From the NCBI GenBank assembly GCA_039738415.1, contig JBCLLY010000007.1, forward strand, positions 1-36,515: DNA of 36,515 bases, read 5' to 3'. Of this stretch, positions 14,202 through 35,560 are shown piece by piece. Each line of letters begins with the position of its first letter. Position 1 is the first letter of the stretch. Position numbers and translations under genes: made by a program. The stretch is from Candidatus Levyibacteriota bacterium (lineage in GTDB: Bacteria; Patescibacteriota; Microgenomatia; Levybacterales; GWA1-39-11). The notes beneath the pieces were generated by a model. The model searched no databases and was not told the origin of the DNA. It saw only the letters and a program-made list of their open reading frames with translations.

Positions 14202-16289
14202 ATGAGAATTATAAAGAGAGATTATATTTTCCTTATTTTTTTAATAGCTTTAACATTAATAGTGTTTCATTCTTGGTTTACTTCTGGAACAATTGTTGGG
14301 GGAGACTTATCTTTTAGATACCATGAATCATTTGTGAGTTCTTATTTAATGCCTTATGTATGGAAATGGAGCAATAATTCTGGATTTGGGGGATTCAACG
14401 CCCCCTTTCTAGGAATTCACTACAATTCTATCTTAATCAATCTCTTAGGTCTAAGGCTAGGTTTAAGTTGGGAAATTTTAGTTCGAATAACCCAACTTTT
14501 TCCATTTTTATTTTTATCTTTCTTTTCTTCAATCTATATCTTTAGAAAAGTCTTTACCGACAATAAATTTTGGTTTTTGGCTCCTTTAATTTTTGTTTTT
14601 AACTCCTATATCCTTATGGTTGTAGGAGGCGGACAGATAATTCTGGCACTATCTTATACAATTAGCCCGCTAATTTTGTATTTCTATACTAAATTTTTAA
14701 ATAATTTAGAATTTAATCCCAAAAACATTATCTTAGGTGGACTGTTGCTTTCGGTTCAAGTAATGTTTGATTTGAGAATTACTTATATAACACTATTTGC
14801 TGTTGGAATTTATTGGATAATTTCTGTTTTTTTAAATAGAAATAAAAATTATATTTTTAAATCTCTATTTTTTGTTTCTTTAACTTTTTTTGTAGCGGGT
14901 TTAATACATGCATTTTGGCTTTTGCCTACTTTATTTTTTCATCAAAACCCACTCCAGCAATTAGGCAGTGCCTATACTACAGAAGGAGCGGTTCGCTTTT
15001 TTAGTTTTGCGAAATTTGAAGATGCAATTAGTCTCTTGCATCCTAATTGGCCGAAAAATATTTTCGGTAAAGTCGGCTTTATGAAGCCTGAGTTTTTACT
15101 TTTACCAATATTGGCGTTTTCTTCATTATTGTTTATCGGCAGAGGACAAAAAGTAGAAAACAAAAAACAGAGAGCCTATATATTTTTCTTTGCGTTGCTG
15201 GGTTTAATAGGAGCATTTTTGGCAAAAGGAGCCAACGATCCTTTCGGAGGGATATACCTTTGGATGTTTAATCATGTTCCGGGATTTATTATGTTCAGGG
15301 ATCCGACAAAATGGTACACACTCGTCGCTGTTAGTTATTCCATTCTTATCCCTTATTCAATATGGAATATCTACAGCTTCCTAAGTTCAAAGTTCAAAGT
15401 TCAAAGTTCAAAGTTAAGATTACAATTCAAAATTCAAAAATTTATTCCAAGTTTGTTTTTATTGTTTGTTGTTTTATATTTATTGTTTCTTATCAGTCCT
15501 GCTTTGATGGGGCAGTTAACAGGAACATTTAAATCAACAAAAATTCCTAATGAATATGTAGCTCTAGAAAAATATATATCTTCTCAAAATGGTTTTTTCA
15601 GAGTACTTTGGATACCGACCACACAAGCGTTCACTTTTAATTCAATTAATCATCCTGCTGTAAATTCGGAAAATTATTTTAAAACAACAGATTATTCTCA
15701 AATTCTTAAGAAAATGAGAACACCAGAAACAGAAAAACTGCTGCAGGAATCCGGAGTAAAGTATGTAATTGTTCCATATGACAGCTTGGGACAGATTTTT
15801 TTAAGTAATAGAAAGTATAACCAAAACCTATATTTTAAAACTGTATCAGATGTTAAGAAGACACCTTGGTTAAAAGAGATAAAAGGGTTTGGAAAAATTG
15901 CTGTTTTTGAAGTCCCCGAGTACAAGGATCATTTTTGGACAACCTCCAAAAGCTTATCCTTAAGTTATAAATACATAAGTCCTGTTCAGTATAGCGTTAA
16001 AGTAAAGAACGCAAAAAAGGGTGACCTAATAGTTTTTGCCGAAGATTATGATGCAAGATGGATGGCAACGGCGTTGCCGCCGTTAAACGTAAAACTTAAA
16101 ACTGAAAACGTAAAAATTGAGAGCACTAAGTTTGACAATAGGTTTAATAGCTTTGTTTTGCCAGGAGGAAATTATGAGCTTAATGTTTATTATTCACCCC
16201 AGAAGTGGGTTAATTTGGGTCTTATAATAAGCGGCACTACATTTATTTTCTTGATTGCACTTCTAGTTCGATTGAATATGAAAAAATGA
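14202..16289 (+). CDS. Large GT-C-like membrane protein (YfhO/AftD-like)
   Basis: GGD after TM1, many TM helices, an FRDPTKW motif, an extracellular C-domain with VKYVIV and FAEDYDARW, and a final TM helix. Confidence 0.7.
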   Translation: MRIIKRDYIFLIFLIALTLIVFHSWFTSGTIVGGDLSFRYHESFVSSYLMPYVWKWSNNSGFGGFNAPFLGIHYNSILINLLGLRLGLSWEILVRITQLFPFLFLSFFSSIYIFRKVFTDNKFWFLAPLIFVFNSYILMVVGGGQIILALSYTISPLILYFYTKFLNNLEFNPKNIILGGLLLSVQVMFDLRITYITLFAVGIYWIISVFLNRNKNYIFKSLFFVSLTFFVAGLIHAFWLLPTLFFHQNPLQQLGSAYTTEGAVRFFSFAKFEDAISLLHPNWPKNIFGKVGFMKPEFLLLPILAFSSLLFIGRGQKVENKKQRAYIFFFALLGLIGAFLAKGANDPFGGIYLWMFNHVPGFIMFRDPTKWYTLVAVSYSILIPYSIWNIYSFLSSKFKVQSSKLRLQFKIQKFIPSLFLLFVVLYLLFLISPALMGQLTGTFKSTKIPNEYVALEKYISSQNGFFRVLWIPTTQAFTFNSINHPAVNSENYFKTTDYSQILKKMRTPETEKLLQESGVKYVIVPYDSLGQIFLSNRKYNQNLYFKTVSDVKKTPWLKEIKGFGKIAVFEVPEYKDHFWTTSKSLSLSYKYISPVQYSVKVKNAKKGDLIVFAEDYDARWMATALPPLNVKLKTENVKIESTKFDNRFNSFVLPGGNYELNVYYSPQKWVNLGLIISGTTFIFLIALLVRLNMKK
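15383..15440 (+). repeat. In-frame heptamer array (AAGTTCA)4 plus degenerate units
   Basis: Encodes SKFKVQSSKLRLQFKIQK between two TM helices. Confidence 0.9.
16085..16119 (+). repeat. In-frame degenerate heptamer array
   Basis: aaacgta aaactta aaactga aaacgta aaaattg, encoding NVKLKTENVKI. Confidence 0.75.
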
Positions 16290-16501
16290 AACCGCAAGAT
16301 ATATTATTTATTATAGTGTTGGTTGGGCTTTTGTTTAAGCGGAACCCGAAATGGTTTGTTTGGGTAGGTCTTTCTTGTTTGATACTTTCGATTCCCCTCT
16401 TTTCCTTTTGGGTATTCTTTACTGCGCAAAGACTCACATATTACGCAGCGGGATTTTTGTCTATCGCGATAATGCTCATGCTATTCAAGAGGGAAAAGTA
16501 A
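16286..16501 (+). CDS. Small membrane protein of unknown function
   Basis: 71 aa, strongly hydrophobic, with an ATGA overlap with the upstream gene. Confidence 0.7.
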   Translation: MKPQDILFIIVLVGLLFKRNPKWFVWVGLSCLILSIPLFSFWVFFTAQRLTYYAAGFLSIAIMLMLFKREK

Positions 16502-16524: not shown

Positions 16525-17778
16525 ATGGAAAATAATTTGGTAAAAAGGATAAATACATGTAGGATTTGTAAATCGACTGATTTGGTTGATGTCATTGATT
16601 TAACAGACCAGCCTATCCCAAATGGATTTCTTACGAAGGAAGATTTAAAACAAAAAGAAGAAAAATATCCCCTCGTGGCTGCGTTTTGCAAGAACTGTTC
16701 TCTCATGCAATTAAGGTATTTAGTAAACCCAAAAGTAATGTTTCAAAATTATCTTTACATCCCCTCGGCTTCAAAAACCCGCGTGAACCATTTTAAAGAA
16801 CTTGCGGAAGAAGTAAAAAAACTTACAAATTTTAACGAAAAGTCACTGATAATTGATATCGGAAGTAACGATGGGAGCCTGCTTATCGCTTTTAAAAATC
16901 TTGGAGCAAGAACACTTGGAATAGACCCTGCCCAAAATTTGGTAAAGGTTGCAGCGCTTTCCGGAATAGAAACTGTAAATGATTATTTTGAATCTAAAGT
17001 TGCTGCAAGGATTGGGAAAAAATACGGAAAAGCAAAAGCAATTTTGGCGACAAATGTAATAGCTCACATTAACAACCTGCATGAAGTTATAAAGGGCGGA
17101 GAGATTTTACTTGAAACTGATGGTGTATTTTTGATGCAATTTCCATATTTACTTGATTTAATAGAGAAAAATCTTTTTGATACTATTTATCACGAACATT
17201 TATCATACTTTTCAGTAAAATCCCTAATGGTTCTTGCCAAGAATTCGGATTTGGAAATATTTGATATAGAGAAAAGCGATTTGGACGGGGGGTCTCTCAA
17301 GGTCTATTGGAAGAAGAAAACAAATAAGAAAAGAAAAATTAACCAAGAAGGAATAGATAAAATCCTTAAGGAAGAGGAAGAGTTTGGATTATATAAAATT
17401 GAAACTTATGAAAAATTTGCTAAAAGAATTAAAAAATTAAAAGATTATGCTGTTAAAAAGTTAAAAGATTTAAAAAAGAGGAATAAAACAATTGTCGGAT
17501 ACGGGGCTGCTGCAAAGGCAAATGTACTACTCAATTATTTCGGAATAGATAAAAAGACAATAGACTATATAGTTGACTCAACTCCATTTAAGCAGGGAAA
17601 ATACACTCCGGGCAGTCACATCCCTATTTACTCTGAGGATAAAATATACGAAACAAATCCTGATTACGTAATTATATTTGCGTGGAATTTTGCAAAAGAA
17701 ATTATGGAGAAGAACAAAAGGTATAAAAATAATGGAGGAAAATTTATCTTCATCGAGCCAGAATTTAGAATAGAATAA
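16525..17778 (+). CDS. NDP-sugar C-methyltransferase family protein (NovU/TcaB9/EryBIII-like)
   Basis: Zn motif CRIC...CKNC, DIGSNDG, FDTIYHEHLSYFS, GYGAAAK and KQGKYTPGSHIPI. Confidence 0.9.
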   Translation: MENNLVKRINTCRICKSTDLVDVIDLTDQPIPNGFLTKEDLKQKEEKYPLVAAFCKNCSLMQLRYLVNPKVMFQNYLYIPSASKTRVNHFKELAEEVKKLTNFNEKSLIIDIGSNDGSLLIAFKNLGARTLGIDPAQNLVKVAALSGIETVNDYFESKVAARIGKKYGKAKAILATNVIAHINNLHEVIKGGEILLETDGVFLMQFPYLLDLIEKNLFDTIYHEHLSYFSVKSLMVLAKNSDLEIFDIEKSDLDGGSLKVYWKKKTNKKRKINQEGIDKILKEEEEFGLYKIETYEKFAKRIKKLKDYAVKKLKDLKKRNKTIVGYGAAAKANVLLNYFGIDKKTIDYIVDSTPFKQGKYTPGSHIPIYSEDKIYETNPDYVIIFAWNFAKEIMEKNKRYKNNGGKFIFIEPEFRIE

Positions 17779-17788
17779 GGAATTTGTG

Positions 17789-17818
17789 TTTGTTTGAAAT
17801 CCTTTCAATTGAGTATAA
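17789..17818 (+). promoter_or_regulatory. Possible sigma70 promoter upstream of the microsatellite and the TrpR-like gene
   Basis: Perfect TATAAT (~17813-17818) with TTGTTT/TTGAAA candidates upstream. The spacing is non-optimal. Confidence 0.35.
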
Positions 17819-17899
17819 TTAACCCAGTTAAATAATTTTAAATTCGTCTATTTTTTTATTTGTTAAGTTTGATACATAAGAAATTCAACCCGTAAGTCT

Positions 17900-17955
17900 A
17901 AACAAACAAACAAACAAACAAACAAACAAACAAACAAACAAACAAACAAACAAAC
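17900..17955. repeat. Perfect tetranucleotide microsatellite (AAAC)14
   Basis: Counted 56 bp of uninterrupted AAAC units in the intergenic region. Confidence 0.97.
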
Positions 17956-17994
17956 AACATGTTCTGTATTATGTGTATGGTTTATAAGAATACT

Positions 17995-18027
17995 TACTTT
18001 GCTGCTACGTAGCATAGTAGCAAAGTA
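17995..18027. promoter_or_regulatory. Palindromic site, copy 1 (operator or recombination-site candidate)
   Basis: tactttgctgcta-cgtagca-tagtagcaaagta has 13-bp inverted arms (1 mismatch) around a 7-bp spacer and contains the perfect palindrome tgctacgtagca. Confidence 0.7.
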
Positions 18028-18058
18028 AAAAATATATTGGCTATATTGACTAACCAAA

Positions 18059-18568
18059 ATGAGTGCAATTTCAAAAAAGGAAAAAAGGGAATTGATCCTG
18101 GATTTGATACATGGATTTGTCTTGTGTAAAACTATTGATGAGGTCATAATTTTTCTTGAGGACCTCATAACAAAAAAGGAACTTGAGACTTTATCTAAAA
18201 GGCTGCGGATTGCGAAACTTTTGATAAAAGGCTATGATTACCGTGAAATTCAGGAGATTGTACACGCAAGTCACTCAACTATCGCTAAAATTTCTTACTG
18301 GCTTTCCGAAAGAGGTGAGGGTTTTAGACAAATAGTAAGGACACTTCCTAAAGAAAGTGCTAATCTAATTGATCCATTGGAATATGATGCATGGGCAGAT
18401 TTAAGGAAAAGGTATCCCGGATACTTTCTCCCTGAACTTATTATGGAAGGAATAGTGAAGAATAGATCGGGAAAGAAGCAGAAGAGGATATCAAGTTCCC
18501 TTAAAAATCTGGAAATATCTTTAAATAGAAAAAAAGCAATAGGTAAAGAAGTTGATAAACAATCCTAA
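18059..18568 (+). CDS. TrpR-like (YerC/YecD) HTH transcriptional regulator with a C-terminal extension
   Basis: FLEDLITKKELETLSKRLRIAKLL..G.DYREIQ...ASHSTIAKIS..L...GEGF matches the Trp repressor fold. Confidence 0.88.
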   Translation: MSAISKKEKRELILDLIHGFVLCKTIDEVIIFLEDLITKKELETLSKRLRIAKLLIKGYDYREIQEIVHASHSTIAKISYWLSERGEGFRQIVRTLPKESANLIDPLEYDAWADLRKRYPGYFLPELIMEGIVKNRSGKKQKRISSSLKNLEISLNRKKAIGKEVDKQS

Positions 18569-18573
18569 GACTA

Positions 18574-18705
18574 CTTCAATTTACCTTACTCTTTACCCCG
18601 CATCCCAATGCCCCGACACGCTTCGCCAAGTCAGACTTGGCTTCGCAAAGCTACAGCGAGGCGAGCCGTAAGGTCGTGGGAGCTTCAATTTACCTTACTC
18701 TCTAC
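18574..18705. repeat. Direct repeat (19 bp perfect, 22/23 extended) bracketing a GC-rich insert
   Basis: cttcaatttaccttactct at 18574-18592 and 18683-18701. Confidence 0.9.
18592..18683. mobile_element. GC-rich MITE/REP-like element, copy A, with a nested 28-bp insertion
   Basis: Aligns to the reverse complement of 35497-35560 in blocks of 32/35, 9/9 and 13/15. The extra segment contains the hairpin gccaagtc-a-gacttggc. Confidence 0.75.
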
Positions 18706-18706
18706 T

Positions 18707-18736
18707 TTACTTTGCTGCTACGTAGCACAGTAGCAA
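18707..18736. promoter_or_regulatory. Palindromic site, copy 2
   Basis: ttactttgctgctacgtagcacagtagcaa is 29/30 identical to 17994-18023, in the same orientation, ~70 bp upstream of ATG 18805. Confidence 0.7.
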
Positions 18737-18804
18737 GCTGTTAGCAAATCGGTCTAGCAGAAATTGGAGTTTAATTTAAAGAGATGAAACTGTACAATTA
18801 AGAC

Positions 18805-19338
18805 ATGAAAATAGGAATTGATATCAGCCAGCTTGCCTATCCAAATATCGGGGTTGCGAATTATCTGTGGAATTTGGTTAAGGCGTTGGTTGAGGAAAAT
18901 AAGGATATCGAATTTGTATTGTTTTTCAGCTCTCTCAGAAGGAGTATCCAGTATCCAGTATCCAGTATTCAGTATAAGAATGTAACTATAAGAAGATTCA
19001 GGATTCCGCCGACAATTTTAGATTTATTGTGGAATAGGCTTCATATAGCACCAATTGAGTGGTTTGTGGGAGACGTTGATGTATTCATAACCTCAGACTG
19101 GACAGAGCCCCCAGTAAGACAAGCTAAGAAAGCGACCATTATCTATGATCTAATCGTCTATAAACACCCTGAAGAAACGGACAAAAAAATTGTTCAAACA
19201 CAAAAAAGAAAATTAAATTGGGTTAAGAAGGAAGCAGATTCTATTATTTGTATTTCTCAGTCAACTAAAAACGATGTAATAGAAATATTAGGCATTGATG
19301 ATAAAAAAGTAAGTGTTATTTATCCAGGGCTATTATGA
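18805..19338 (+). CDS. GT4 N-terminal domain only (truncated or stand-alone)
   Basis: MKIGIDIS...GVANY...TIIYDL...IICISQSTKND...VIYPG and then a stop. There is no EGFG-containing C-domain. Confidence 0.75.
   Translation: MKIGIDISQLAYPNIGVANYLWNLVKALVEENKDIEFVLFFSSLRRSIQYPVSSIQYKNVTIRRFRIPPTILDLLWNRLHIAPIEWFVGDVDVFITSDWTEPPVRQAKKATIIYDLIVYKHPEETDKKIVQTQKRKLNWVKKEADSIICISQSTKNDVIEILGIDDKKVSVIYPGLL
18943..18977 (+). repeat. In-frame heptamer array (AGTATCC)3 AGTATTC AGTATAA
   Basis: Encodes SIQYPVSSIQYK. Confidence 0.9.
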
Positions 19339-20516
19339 AGATTGGAATAAATGGTTTTGAAGCAGTTGTGCCGAGGTTTGGATATGATAAGACAACAGGT
19401 CTTCCAAACCGCGTAGGGAGTAGTGAAGTTTGTTTCCAGCTTCTTAATCAATTTTCAAAAATTGATAAAAAAAATGAGTATATAGTTTATTTACCTCAAA
19501 AACCAACGGAGGACATGCCAAAAGAAAATGATAATTGGAAGTACGAAGTTATACCAAATACTAAGCTCTGGACAATATTTGGTTTAAACAGAAAATTAAT
19601 TACAAATTCAAAATTGGATGTATTTTTTTCGTCCACTCATTATGGCCCGCTTTATACTCATTGCCCTCAAGTAATTTCAATTCTTGACGTTTCGTACAAA
19701 TATTTTCCCGAGATGTTCCGCAGAATTGATCTTTTAAAGCTTGCACTTTGGGGCAAGTACTCGATTAAAAAAGCCCAAAAAATAATTACGATAAGTGATA
19801 GCTCTAAGAATGATATAATTAATGAATACAATATTGACCCGAGAAAAATAAGCGTGGTTTACCCGGGTCTAAAATTCGAAGTTCAAAATCATAAATCCGA
19901 AATAAATTCAAAACTTAAAATGCAAAATTCAAAACTACTAAAAGAGAAATATAACATTAATTCTCCTTACATTTTGTTCGTAGGTACACTTCAGCCTAGA
20001 AAGAATATTGTTCGGCTTGTAGAGGCGTTTGCGGAACTTACAACTAAAAACCTAAAACTTAAAAGTGATTTGGATTTGGTTATTGTTGGAAGACGCGGGT
20101 GGAATTATGAGGAAATTCTGGAAGCTCCGAAAAAGTTTGGAGTTGAGAAAAAAGTGCGTTTCATAGAGAATGTTACAGATAACGATTTACCTACATTCTA
20201 TAAGAACGCGGATGTTTTTGTGTTACCCAGTCTTTATGAAGGGTTTGGATTGCCGGTTTTGGAAGCTATGCGCTACGGGTGCCCTGTTTTAACAAGTAAT
20301 ATTTCTTCACTACCCGAGGCAGGAGGAGATGCTGCCATTTATTTTAATCCAAATGATACAAATGACATTGCTGACAAAATAAATAAAGTTTTGGGAGATG
20401 AAAAATTGAGAGAGGAAATGATTGAAAAAGGTTACGAGCAGGTAAAAAAATTTTCTTGGGAAAAGAGCGCGAGAGAGGTTTTGCAGGTTTTAGAGGAAAC
20501 AGTAAAGCCAGTATAG
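19335..20516 (+). CDS. GT4 glycosyltransferase (MtfB/WbdB mannosyltransferase-like)
   Basis: FVGTLQPRKN, PSLYEGFGLPVLEAM and FSWEKSA. Confidence 0.93.
   Translation: MKIGINGFEAVVPRFGYDKTTGLPNRVGSSEVCFQLLNQFSKIDKKNEYIVYLPQKPTEDMPKENDNWKYEVIPNTKLWTIFGLNRKLITNSKLDVFFSSTHYGPLYTHCPQVISILDVSYKYFPEMFRRIDLLKLALWGKYSIKKAQKIITISDSSKNDIINEYNIDPRKISVVYPGLKFEVQNHKSEINSKLKMQNSKLLKEKYNINSPYILFVGTLQPRKNIVRLVEAFAELTTKNLKLKSDLDLVIVGRRGWNYEEILEAPKKFGVEKKVRFIENVTDNDLPTFYKNADVFVLPSLYEGFGLPVLEAMRYGCPVLTSNISSLPEAGGDAAIYFNPNDTNDIADKINKVLGDEKLREEMIEKGYEQVKKFSWEKSAREVLQVLEETVKPV
19872..19938 (+). repeat. In-frame degenerate heptamer array in the GT4 inter-domain linker
   Basis: aaattcg aagttca aaatcat aaatccg aaat aaattca aaactta aaatgca aaattca aaactac. 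Confidence 0.75.
20035..20069 (+). repeat. In-frame degenerate heptamer array
   Basis: aacttac aactaaa aacctaa aacttaa aagtgat, encoding LTTKNLKLKSD. Confidence 0.6.
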
Positions 20517-20578
20517 AGTATAGAGTATAGAGCATTGAGTAGAATTCTATACAGAATACAGAATACAGAATACAAACT
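20510..20578 (+). repeat. Two heptamer arrays filling the intergenic space: (AGTATAG)3 plus 2 degenerate units, and (ACAGAAT)3 plus 1
   Basis: Read directly. The first unit contains the upstream stop TAG, and the last ends 1 nt before ATG 20580. Confidence 0.9.
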
Positions 20579-20579
20579 T

Positions 20580-21134
20580 ATGTTAAATAAAATGATTAAT
20601 AGAATAAATACGGTTTTATTAGAATTTGAGAATCTGATTTTAAAAATTGTCGGAGTGGTTCCTTCCCACTTCTTCCGGAGGTTTTTTTATAGAGTATCCG
20701 GGATGAAGATTGGGGCAGGCTCGACTATTCATACAGGGGCAGTGTTTTATGATGCAGGCAATATCACAATTGGAAAAGATACAATAATTGGAGAAAATGC
20801 TGTTTTTGACGGACGGGAAAAAATAAACATCGGAAATCACGTCGATTTTGCATCGGAGGTTATGATTTATAATTCCCAGCATGATATACAAAGCGATGAC
20901 TTTGGAGTAATATCTGAGCCGGTTGTTATAAAGGACTATGTATTTATAGGTCCGAGGGCGATTATTTTGCCGGGTGTTACAATCGGACGTGGTGCGGTTG
21001 TTGCTGCAGGTGCGGTAGTTACAAGAAATGTAGGAGATTTTGAAATCGTAGGTGGAGTACCCGCAAAAGTAATTGGAGAGCGCAAATTAAAAGATCCTAA
21101 GTACGAACTTGGCAGGGCTGCTTGGTTTAGGTGA
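20580..21134 (+). CDS. Hexapeptide-repeat O-acyltransferase (maltose/galactoside acetyltransferase-like)
   Basis: LbH repeats, NSQHD, GAVVAAGAVVT and GGVPAKVI. The TTG start at 20535 only adds repeat-derived residues. Confidence 0.9.
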   Translation: MLNKMINRINTVLLEFENLILKIVGVVPSHFFRRFFYRVSGMKIGAGSTIHTGAVFYDAGNITIGKDTIIGENAVFDGREKINIGNHVDFASEVMIYNSQHDIQSDDFGVISEPVVIKDYVFIGPRAIILPGVTIGRGAVVAAGAVVTRNVGDFEIVGGVPAKVIGERKLKDPKYELGRAAWFR

Positions 21135-21293
21135 GTATTGAGTATTCAGTATTGAGTATTCAGTATAGAAAACATTAAGAGATTAACGTATTAACAACAA
21201 ATTAAAATATTAACAAGTTAACAAATTTTAAATTATAGTAAATTAGTACAGGGGGGTTAATCTTTTAGTTTTTTAATTTTTTAATTTTTTAAT
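21133..21293. repeat. Intergenic composite: 5 heptamers, then inverted 8-bp-period arrays
   Basis: gagtatt gagtatt cagtatt gagtatt cagtata (21133-21167); ATTAAC-type 8-mers (~21172-21225); inverted gttaatct tttagttt tttaattt tttaattt tttaat (21256-21293). Confidence 0.8.
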
Positions 21294-35496: not shown

Positions 35497-35560
35497 ACCC
35501 CGCACCCACGACCATACGCCTCGCTGCGAAGCGGGTCAGGGCATTGGGGTGCGGGGTAAA
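35497..35560. mobile_element. GC-rich MITE/REP-like element, copy B, with 11-bp terminal inverted repeats
   Basis: accccgcaccc (35497-35507) ... gggtgcggggt (35547-35557). It is homologous to 18592-18683 in the opposite orientation. Confidence 0.8.

Follow-up and report, generated by a model that had tools for sequence, protein, structure and literature searches.

A TrpR-fold gene lies between two near-identical palindromes

The window analysed here is the whole stretch of 36,515 nucleotides, which comes from a 797,524-bp, 86%-complete assembly. Among glycosyltransferase, methyltransferase and related genes, it carries a gene for a 169-aa protein of the TrpR/YerC fold (18059..18568, + strand), bracketed by two palindromic sites to which no strand was assigned. 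The upstream site (copy 1) occupies 17994..18023, with a 26-bp core at 17996-18021 and a dyad centre at 18008/18009; the downstream site (copy 2) occupies 18707..18736, with its 26-bp core at 18709-18734 and its centre at 18721/18722. As an earlier note on this DNA had reported, the two copies match at 29 of 30 positions at an offset of 713 bp, and the spacings given there were reproduced, with 35 bp between copy 1 and the ATG of the regulator (18059) and 68 bp between copy 2 and the ATG of a GT4 gene (18805). The latter gene, encoding a GT4 N-terminal domain (18805..19338, + strand), opens a conserved downstream glycan block and lies outside the unit of gene and sites. Of 48 genomes of the family, 42 retain this domain (177 aa) in stand-alone form. 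The upstream neighbours are genes for a 71-aa protein (16286..16501, + strand) and a C-methyltransferase (16525..17778, + strand).

Several repeats lie around the unit. A GC-rich dispersed hairpin repeat with a fold of −31.9 kcal/mol (18592..18690, no strand assigned) stands between the stop codon of the regulator and the downstream site, has 16 further blastn matches in the assembly, and is flanked by a 19-bp direct repeat that is partly made of the repeat's own end. Because this repeat intervenes, copy 2 is far from the stop codon, its centre being at +153, as against +6 to +40 in most relatives. The hairpin repeat was also seen at 35526-35560 of the window, and another copy lies behind the paralogue at G000:C3:2740-3141. 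About 36 bp 5' of the upstream site, an (AAAC)14.5 microsatellite (17900..17957, + strand) is the sole 4-mer run with at least seven units in the assembly, and is possibly a length-variable promoter element. Tandem repeats of 7-mers, both intergenic and in frame inside genes, were noted at 15383-15439, 18943-18975, 20510-20574 and 21132-21166.

A 21-base part of the site, allowing up to three mismatches, matched twice in the window and not once in 100 shuffles. The motif scan of the genome that the earlier note had suggested identified the two window sites as the sole copies in the assembly; at up to eight mismatches, the 30-mer returned copies 1 and 2 only, plus the reverse reading of copy 1. 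When the assembly was scored with an independent matrix trained on 70 sites, all from other genomes, the downstream and upstream sites reached 25.7 and 23.3 bits, compared with 6.1 bits for the next-best place and with peaks of 6.4-12.4 bits in five shuffled genomes.

The bracketed protein belongs to a long type of TrpR-fold regulators

The description of the gene product as a TrpR/YerC-like regulator was borne out by the PF01371 profile, which the protein passed with 49.3 bits against a cut-off of 27, and by its structure model. The YerC/YecD profile TIGR02531 was passed marginally (42.6 versus 42.2 bits) and over residues 15-88 only, and assignment as TrpR proper was rejected at 22.8 bits, below the TIGR01321 cut-off of 67.25. 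The predicted structure (mean pLDDT 78.7, pTM 0.49, from a 16-sequence alignment) is all-helical, with a TrpR core, a recognition helix formed by residues 70-78, and C-terminal helices at 111-118 and 120-168, the latter of 49 residues; no catalytic domain is present in the model. Foldseek matched it to 3g1c, 3kor, 3frw and 1trr with a probability of 1.0 and E values of 0.001-0.014. That the long C-terminal helix might bridge two sites is a conjecture from the model.

Across 103 long-type proteins, the equivalents of T81 and R54 of TrpR are invariant; the R84 equivalent is K or R in 59 and the G85 equivalent is V or I in 96. None of the 33 ORFs scanned in the window is a trp gene, as the note had stated, and neither trpA (PF00290) nor hisG gave a match in the 86%-complete assembly. 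Given the variable R84 equivalent and the missing matches for trpA and hisG, amino-acid sensing by the protein appears doubtful, and its dependence on Trp or His would be weak or none. A role as controller of trp genes was rejected on the same absence of trp genes from the window ORFs and of PF00290, together with the presence of two sites only. Six PF01371 paralogues are encoded in the assembly, and their sites differ from one another.

Paired sites are a trait of the long subfamily

Genes were sampled across the order, class and phylum, giving 203 distinct genes with full flanks after 11 of 214 had been dropped for incomplete flanks. They were sorted by helix motif and length into HisR-type, TrpR-type and long genes, labels that are our own; the long subfamily comprises TrpR-like proteins of about 115-190 aa. 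A matching palindrome was found 5' of the start and 3' of the stop in 105 of 157 long-type genes, the other 52 falling under the pairing threshold. Among short genes such pairs occurred in 0 of 25 HisR-type, 1 of 14 TrpR-type and 1 of 7 others, and the controls yielded 5 of 400 genes and 6 of 400 mismatched flanks. The motif search around orthologous regulators proposed in the note thus revealed a family-wide pairing. A separate phylum-wide sample gave pairs at 13 of 16 versus 0 of 10. HisR-type genes from the same order stand apart as a class that lacks a downstream site, and within the long subfamily the site sequence varies gene by gene. A single-protein scan returned two loci in genome contigs, both clostridial HisR-type, and four loci in metagenomes. 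In the mostly open-access literature on TrpR/YerC proteins and Patescibacteria regulators, we found no description of a gene bracketed by two sites in this layout.

The site has an 8-bp register and covaries with the recognition helix

Site anatomy was derived from 103 centred pairs, two of the 105 having been left out as mis-centred. Three half-sites at 8-bp intervals make up each 26-bp palindrome; pyrimidine-purine steps stand at positions 5-6, 13-14 and 21-22 (0.65, 0.96 and 0.65, respectively), and self-identity is 0.48 at lag 8 versus 0.19-0.33 at other lags. The 8-bp repeat described in the note is the half-site register of the family site. E. coli TrpR binds tandem half-sites 8 bp apart, and in the tandem TrpR complex 1TRR the dimer geometry matches this register. 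The 26-bp site can be read as two overlapped 18-bp TrpR-type operators, which would fit two dimers in tandem. The dyad common to both window copies and to the relatives is centred on CG, with a 2-bp centre. It is not the 13-7-13 dyad that the note had described, which holds for copy 1 (12 of 13 paired) and fails for copy 2 (8 of 13, by hand count).

A mutual-information scan placed H72, Y61, S71, S73 and A76 among the top columns covarying with site bases, although some non-helix columns rank high too. In the alignment to TrpR these residues correspond to I79, Q68, G78, A80 and T83; the residues given as TrpR contacts to DNA in PMC9413887 are R69, I79, A80, T81, T83 and R84. H72 covaries with site positions 2 and 10, i.e. 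8 bp apart, and at position 2 arginine at residue 72 goes with G (10/10), aspartate with C (7/7) and proline with C (6/6). In a tree from which the helix had been left out, residue-72 class and site base 2 agreed in about 8 of 10 independent pairs and no pair was opposite (median p 0.008), with a residue grouping that was picked after the table had been seen; ten of the eleven distinct tree-aware covariation tests were not significant, being underpowered, and leaned the same way. On account of the 8-bp periodicity, the covariation with the helix, and the promoter placement of the upstream copy in relatives (below), the two window sites very likely serve the bracketed gene as tandem operators of the TrpR type. 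Binding of the protein to both of them is highly probable.

The upstream and downstream copies differ in their surroundings

The −35 box motif TTGAC lies 5' of 47 of 103 upstream sites and of 1 of 103 downstream sites, which marks the upstream copy as the operator at the promoter in the long subfamily. A promoter scan of the window from 17700 to 18900 gave four matches, with 3.7 expected, none of them at either site; the window's upstream copy likely serves as an autoregulatory operator, its overlap with a promoter being argued from the relatives. Autorepression of the bracketed gene we regard as probable.

On simple ORF calls, the downstream neighbour is convergent in 29 of 101 long-type genes, versus 1 of 26 HisR-type and 0 of 16 TrpR-type genes, and the downstream copy is kept there. 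Given its placement after the stop codon, the lack of a U-tract and its retention before convergent genes, the downstream copy is to all appearances part of the bracketed gene and not of the next promoter. An intrinsic terminator was considered and rejected, because a T-run follows 9 of 103 downstream sites and equally 9 of 103 upstream sites and no terminator was called at the window site. No helical phasing of the spacing between sites was detected (R 0.10). A role of the downstream site as roadblock or loop anchor is somewhat favoured.

The unit is a likely newcomer to the glycan locus

A candidate −10 box (18793..18798, + strand) lies 6 nt 5' of the GT4 start, about 72 bp away from the downstream dyad centre, and may represent a leaderless-type promoter; comparable spacing was seen at several orthologous GT4 loci, and the consensus promoter scan does not call this box. 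We compared 29 orthologous GT4 loci, with 1.5 kb on each side, from the 42 of 48 family genomes that contain the GT4 gene. The regulator was near none of the 29, nor was the core motif found within 400 bp at any of them, and in 7 of the 29 the homologue of the 71-aa gene (16286-16501) lies directly 5' of the GT4 gene.

The closest homologues of the regulator (61-66% identity) carry a nearly identical site pair and reside beside rpsG or nusA. In 66 close pairs, neither neighbour was common in 39, one in 15 and both in 12; the last group indicates that the unit is not always mobile. We take the unit to be a likely self-limiting newcomer to the glycan locus. Long-type genes of different clades (L013, L098 and L109) were seen directly 3' of rpsG in either orientation, which makes the 3' side of rpsG a possible insertion hotspot.

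Copies within a unit resemble each other more than their counterparts in relatives

The two copies of a pair are directly oriented in 54 cases, inverted in 9 and uninformative in 40, and the central asymmetric step is the same in 31 and reversed in 3. Asymmetric bases shared by the copies number 70 of 220 in the direct and 14 in the inverted sense. At 60-70% protein identity, copies within an element are 23.3/26 alike versus 20.2/26 for same-position copies in relatives (39 of 45 pairs); this excess was absent at 80% protein identity or more (4 pairs). One element contains a 55-bp exact repeat. Owing to the direct orientation, the within-element identity, the shared asymmetric bases and this exact repeat, some copying between the two sites of a unit is likely. 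According to PMC8604942, template switching homogenises arms, inverts spacers and can make palindromes in coding DNA perfect where no selection acts, and it could be the source of the symmetric changes and the inverted cases. Neither the shared asymmetric bases nor the in-frame murT sites described below are accounted for by selection for binding alone.

No tyrosine or serine recombinase is encoded in the element, and PF00589 and PF00239 had no match in the 86%-complete assembly. Two Y1_Tnp genes are present in the assembly. The sequence was matched in one sequencing run, with no RNA run among those listed, and the contigs of a related strain from that run cover both sites in separate pieces. 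The 713-bp deletion or circle envisaged in the note left no joint in the contigs of this one strain, from which rare variants drop out.

Lone sites occur in other genomes and within murT

Lone copies of the window clade's site occur in other genomes. One of these (G103) had nine lone core matches, compared with none in a reversed control. Called ORFs contain thirteen of 39 lone sites. The remaining 26 include 14 that have a stop codon, and 5 that have a start codon, no more than 30 bp away. Two paralogues in G000 have four and three lone sites, one of them between convergent genes. For the window protein the assembly offers no site beyond the two flanking ones.

The same murT codons hold an in-frame site without any indel in 14 of 201 genomes, spanning 10 genera; searches of the 201 recovered murT from 191 and the gene of the clade from 22. 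In family f2 the murT site was present in 7 of the 15 genomes that carry the clade's gene versus 6 of 127 without it (8 with two found later), a difference with a Fisher p of about 1e-4 among kin that are not independent. In 84 murT stretches, a set enriched for hits, symmetric pairs numbered 9-12 of 12 in 16 stretches and 7 or fewer in 68. Nine of these 16 palindromic copies are from genomes in which the clade's gene was not found. The murT of G000 is without the site.

By inspection, lone sites seemingly cluster about 10-170 kb from the cognate gene (G047:C1, G427:C7 and G000:C1), which may reflect local spread or a chromosome domain. Lone sites within cysS-, zwf-, dprA- and purH-like ORFs, named by eye from N-terminal sequence, were noted at L297, L302, L305 and L311. 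At L040, L042 and L047 a lone long-type site, of two sequence types, lies directly 3' of a hisR-type stop and before a his leader; in G129 the lone site after a hisR-type gene has exactly the sequence of the upstream copy beside a long-type gene on a different contig. Lone 26-bp sites in pairs (G000:C1:113735 and 116075; G000:C6:59029 and 62290) surround two-gene and multi-gene blocks, and the G000:C6 pair lies inside a longer duplicated spacer and has no cognate gene in the assembly.

A proposed self-bracketed unit and its alternatives

The sites, their pairing, their periodicity, their covariation with the protein and the change of locus are direct observations, and our reading of them, to which we give a probability of roughly 0.6, is that the palindromes bind the TrpR-fold protein encoded between them and that gene and sites together make a relocatable, self-bracketed unit. 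Two dimers would bind each 26-bp site in tandem, at an offset of 8 bp. At the upstream site they would repress the regulator's own promoter; at the downstream site they may act without any promoter, either blocking read-through or anchoring a repression loop. Such a unit could keep itself quiet and shield its neighbours at any landing place. It would have arrived here between glycan genes, as relatives have such units at many unrelated loci, and any influence on the glycosyltransferase block would be a positional side effect.

The earlier note had offered two readings, an operator that also governs the glycan block and an excisable cassette. Of the former, cognate tandem operators with the upstream copy at a promoter in relatives have stood up; dedicated control of glycan genes has not. 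That a repurposed regulator governs the downstream block through its second site would suit the co-directional block with its candidate −10 box some 72 bp from the site, the lone sites that two other genomes have in glycan regions (L121 and L265), and the nature of murT as a cell-wall gene. The 29 orthologous loci devoid of regulator and core motif, the homologues beside rpsG and nusA, and the downstream copies kept before convergent genes speak against it, as do the lack of a further site anywhere in the glycan locus, the rarity of a −35 box before downstream sites, and the position of this site outside the usual repressor window, a product of repeat insertion. We consider such control very unlikely. 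A one-off local duplication without function would explain why just two copies occur in the assembly, but the recurrence across the family, with controls, and the prediction of both sites by a matrix from other genomes render it extremely improbable. Of the cassette, a weaker form survives in that the unit changes locus and its copies look co-homogenised; excision by a recombinase finds little place. Recombination ends from which a 713-bp circle is excised, or direct repeats between which a deletion occurs, would leave a hybrid site, with lone sites as scars, and would accord with the prevalent direct orientation and conserved central step, the likeness within elements, the 55-bp repeat, the loss of homology close to the outer end of the downstream copy in the pairs inspected, and lone sites positioned 3' of stop codons like the downstream copy. 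Tyrosine-recombinase sites consist of 11-13-bp inverted arms around a 6-8-bp spacer, but the 13-7-13 arms are missing from copy 2; moreover, the site sequence tracks the protein's helix rather than a host recombinase, the −35 box falls outside the pair, recombinase profiles had no match in the 86%-complete assembly, the model shows no catalytic domain, murT sites arose without a change of length, and no empty site was seen at the 29 GT4 loci. The missing joint counts weakly, as contigs drop rare variants. We judge excision quite unlikely.

As a further alternative, the protein would clamp or bridge DNA independently of promoters, in the manner of Tus, SlmA or MatP, and its sites would accumulate chromosome-wide, even in coding DNA, self-bracketing being one instance. 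The lone sites in G103 and elsewhere, their frequent location in ORFs or near stops, the indel-free murT site and its association with the gene in family f2, the further sites of two G000 paralogues and the 49-residue helix of the model all agree with it. However, the window protein lacks a third site, 9 of 16 palindromic murT copies stand where the gene was not found, the genomes compared are kin, and template switching offers a route to perfect palindromes in coding DNA that needs no selection (PMC8604942); this alternative is, in our estimation, unlikely. A broader idea, which we hold tentatively and rate as unlikely, is that a non-catalytic, specificity-switching TrpR-fold family forms selfish site-writing elements in CPR bacteria, self-bracketed and mobile, whose 26-bp site they drive to be copied and perfected elsewhere, including in codons of the essential gene murT, where the bound protein would block or bridge DNA regardless of promoters.

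Comparison with known systems

The self-bracketed unit resembles several known systems in part. Looping repressors with two operators are known from lac O1/O2, gal OE/OI and lambda CI OL-OR, and likewise have one site at the promoter and another some hundreds of bases downstream; here the repressor's own gene lies inside the putative loop, without a metabolic operon or helical phasing. Tus/Ter, RTP, SlmA/SBS and MatP/matS bind to sites remote from promoters, a part of them inside coding sequence, and the Tus and RTP genes adjoin their own site. Their folds are unrelated, and in contrast to them the long type is patchy, multi-paralogue and has its own sequence for each protein, with no scattered sites for the window copy. 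In Xer/dif modules, integron cassettes and RAYT/REP elements, a gene lies between directly repeated palindromes at varying loci, with lone copies elsewhere, whereas here the site sequence follows the passenger protein and a recombinase was not found.

E. coli TrpR (PDB 1TRO, 1TRR) has the same fold, invariant counterparts of its T81 and R54, and a tandem 8-bp register that fits the site. The 169-aa protein differs in that it fails the TIGR01321 profile; moreover, the R84 equivalent varies in the long type, that of G85 is mostly V or I, trpA had no match in the assembly, and up to six paralogues in one small genome have differing sites. The trpO operator sits between promoter and RBS, as given in PMC13762905, a position without bearing on a site after the stop codon. 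HisR/YerC proteins (TIGR02531; PDB 3G1C, 3KOR, 3FRW) are the best sequence and structure matches of the 169-aa protein and share a palindromic operator with it. Autoregulation via an upstream site is common among them, and histidine-dependent binding was shown for R. gnavus HisR (PMC9413887). The 169-aa protein, in contrast, has about 70 extra C-terminal residues and a variable recognition helix, and the long type has a 26-bp triple half-site and a second site after the stop, which is found in 0 of 25 HisR-type genes. Its classification as a HisR/YerC protein with conserved helix, operator and his regulon was rejected, because helix and site differ and hisG had no match in the 86%-complete assembly.

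For CPR bacteria there are almost no characterised pairs of regulator and site. Since the likely site can be read from both gene ends for each family member, more than 100 matched protein-DNA pairs with differing helices become available, a direct test set for recognition by the TrpR fold and a source of orthogonal repressors. If the site-writing idea were true, the family would be a natural library of about 100 protein-site pairs for a TrpR-fold recognition code. For the window itself the outcome is mostly negative, in that the unit does not qualify as a switch specific to glycan genes; the instance adds a family member, the tandem architecture, the covariation, the co-homogenisation and the murT counts. 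The downstream and lone sites, above all the in-frame ones in murT, exceed the needs of an ordinary autorepressor and suggest either a role independent of promoters or a process that copies sites. A 233-aa PaaX/Cas2-like gene (assigned by eye; G000:C1:33119-33820, single copy in the assembly) lies inside its own 36-bp palindrome pair, so that self-bracketing may extend to an unrelated DNA-binding family.
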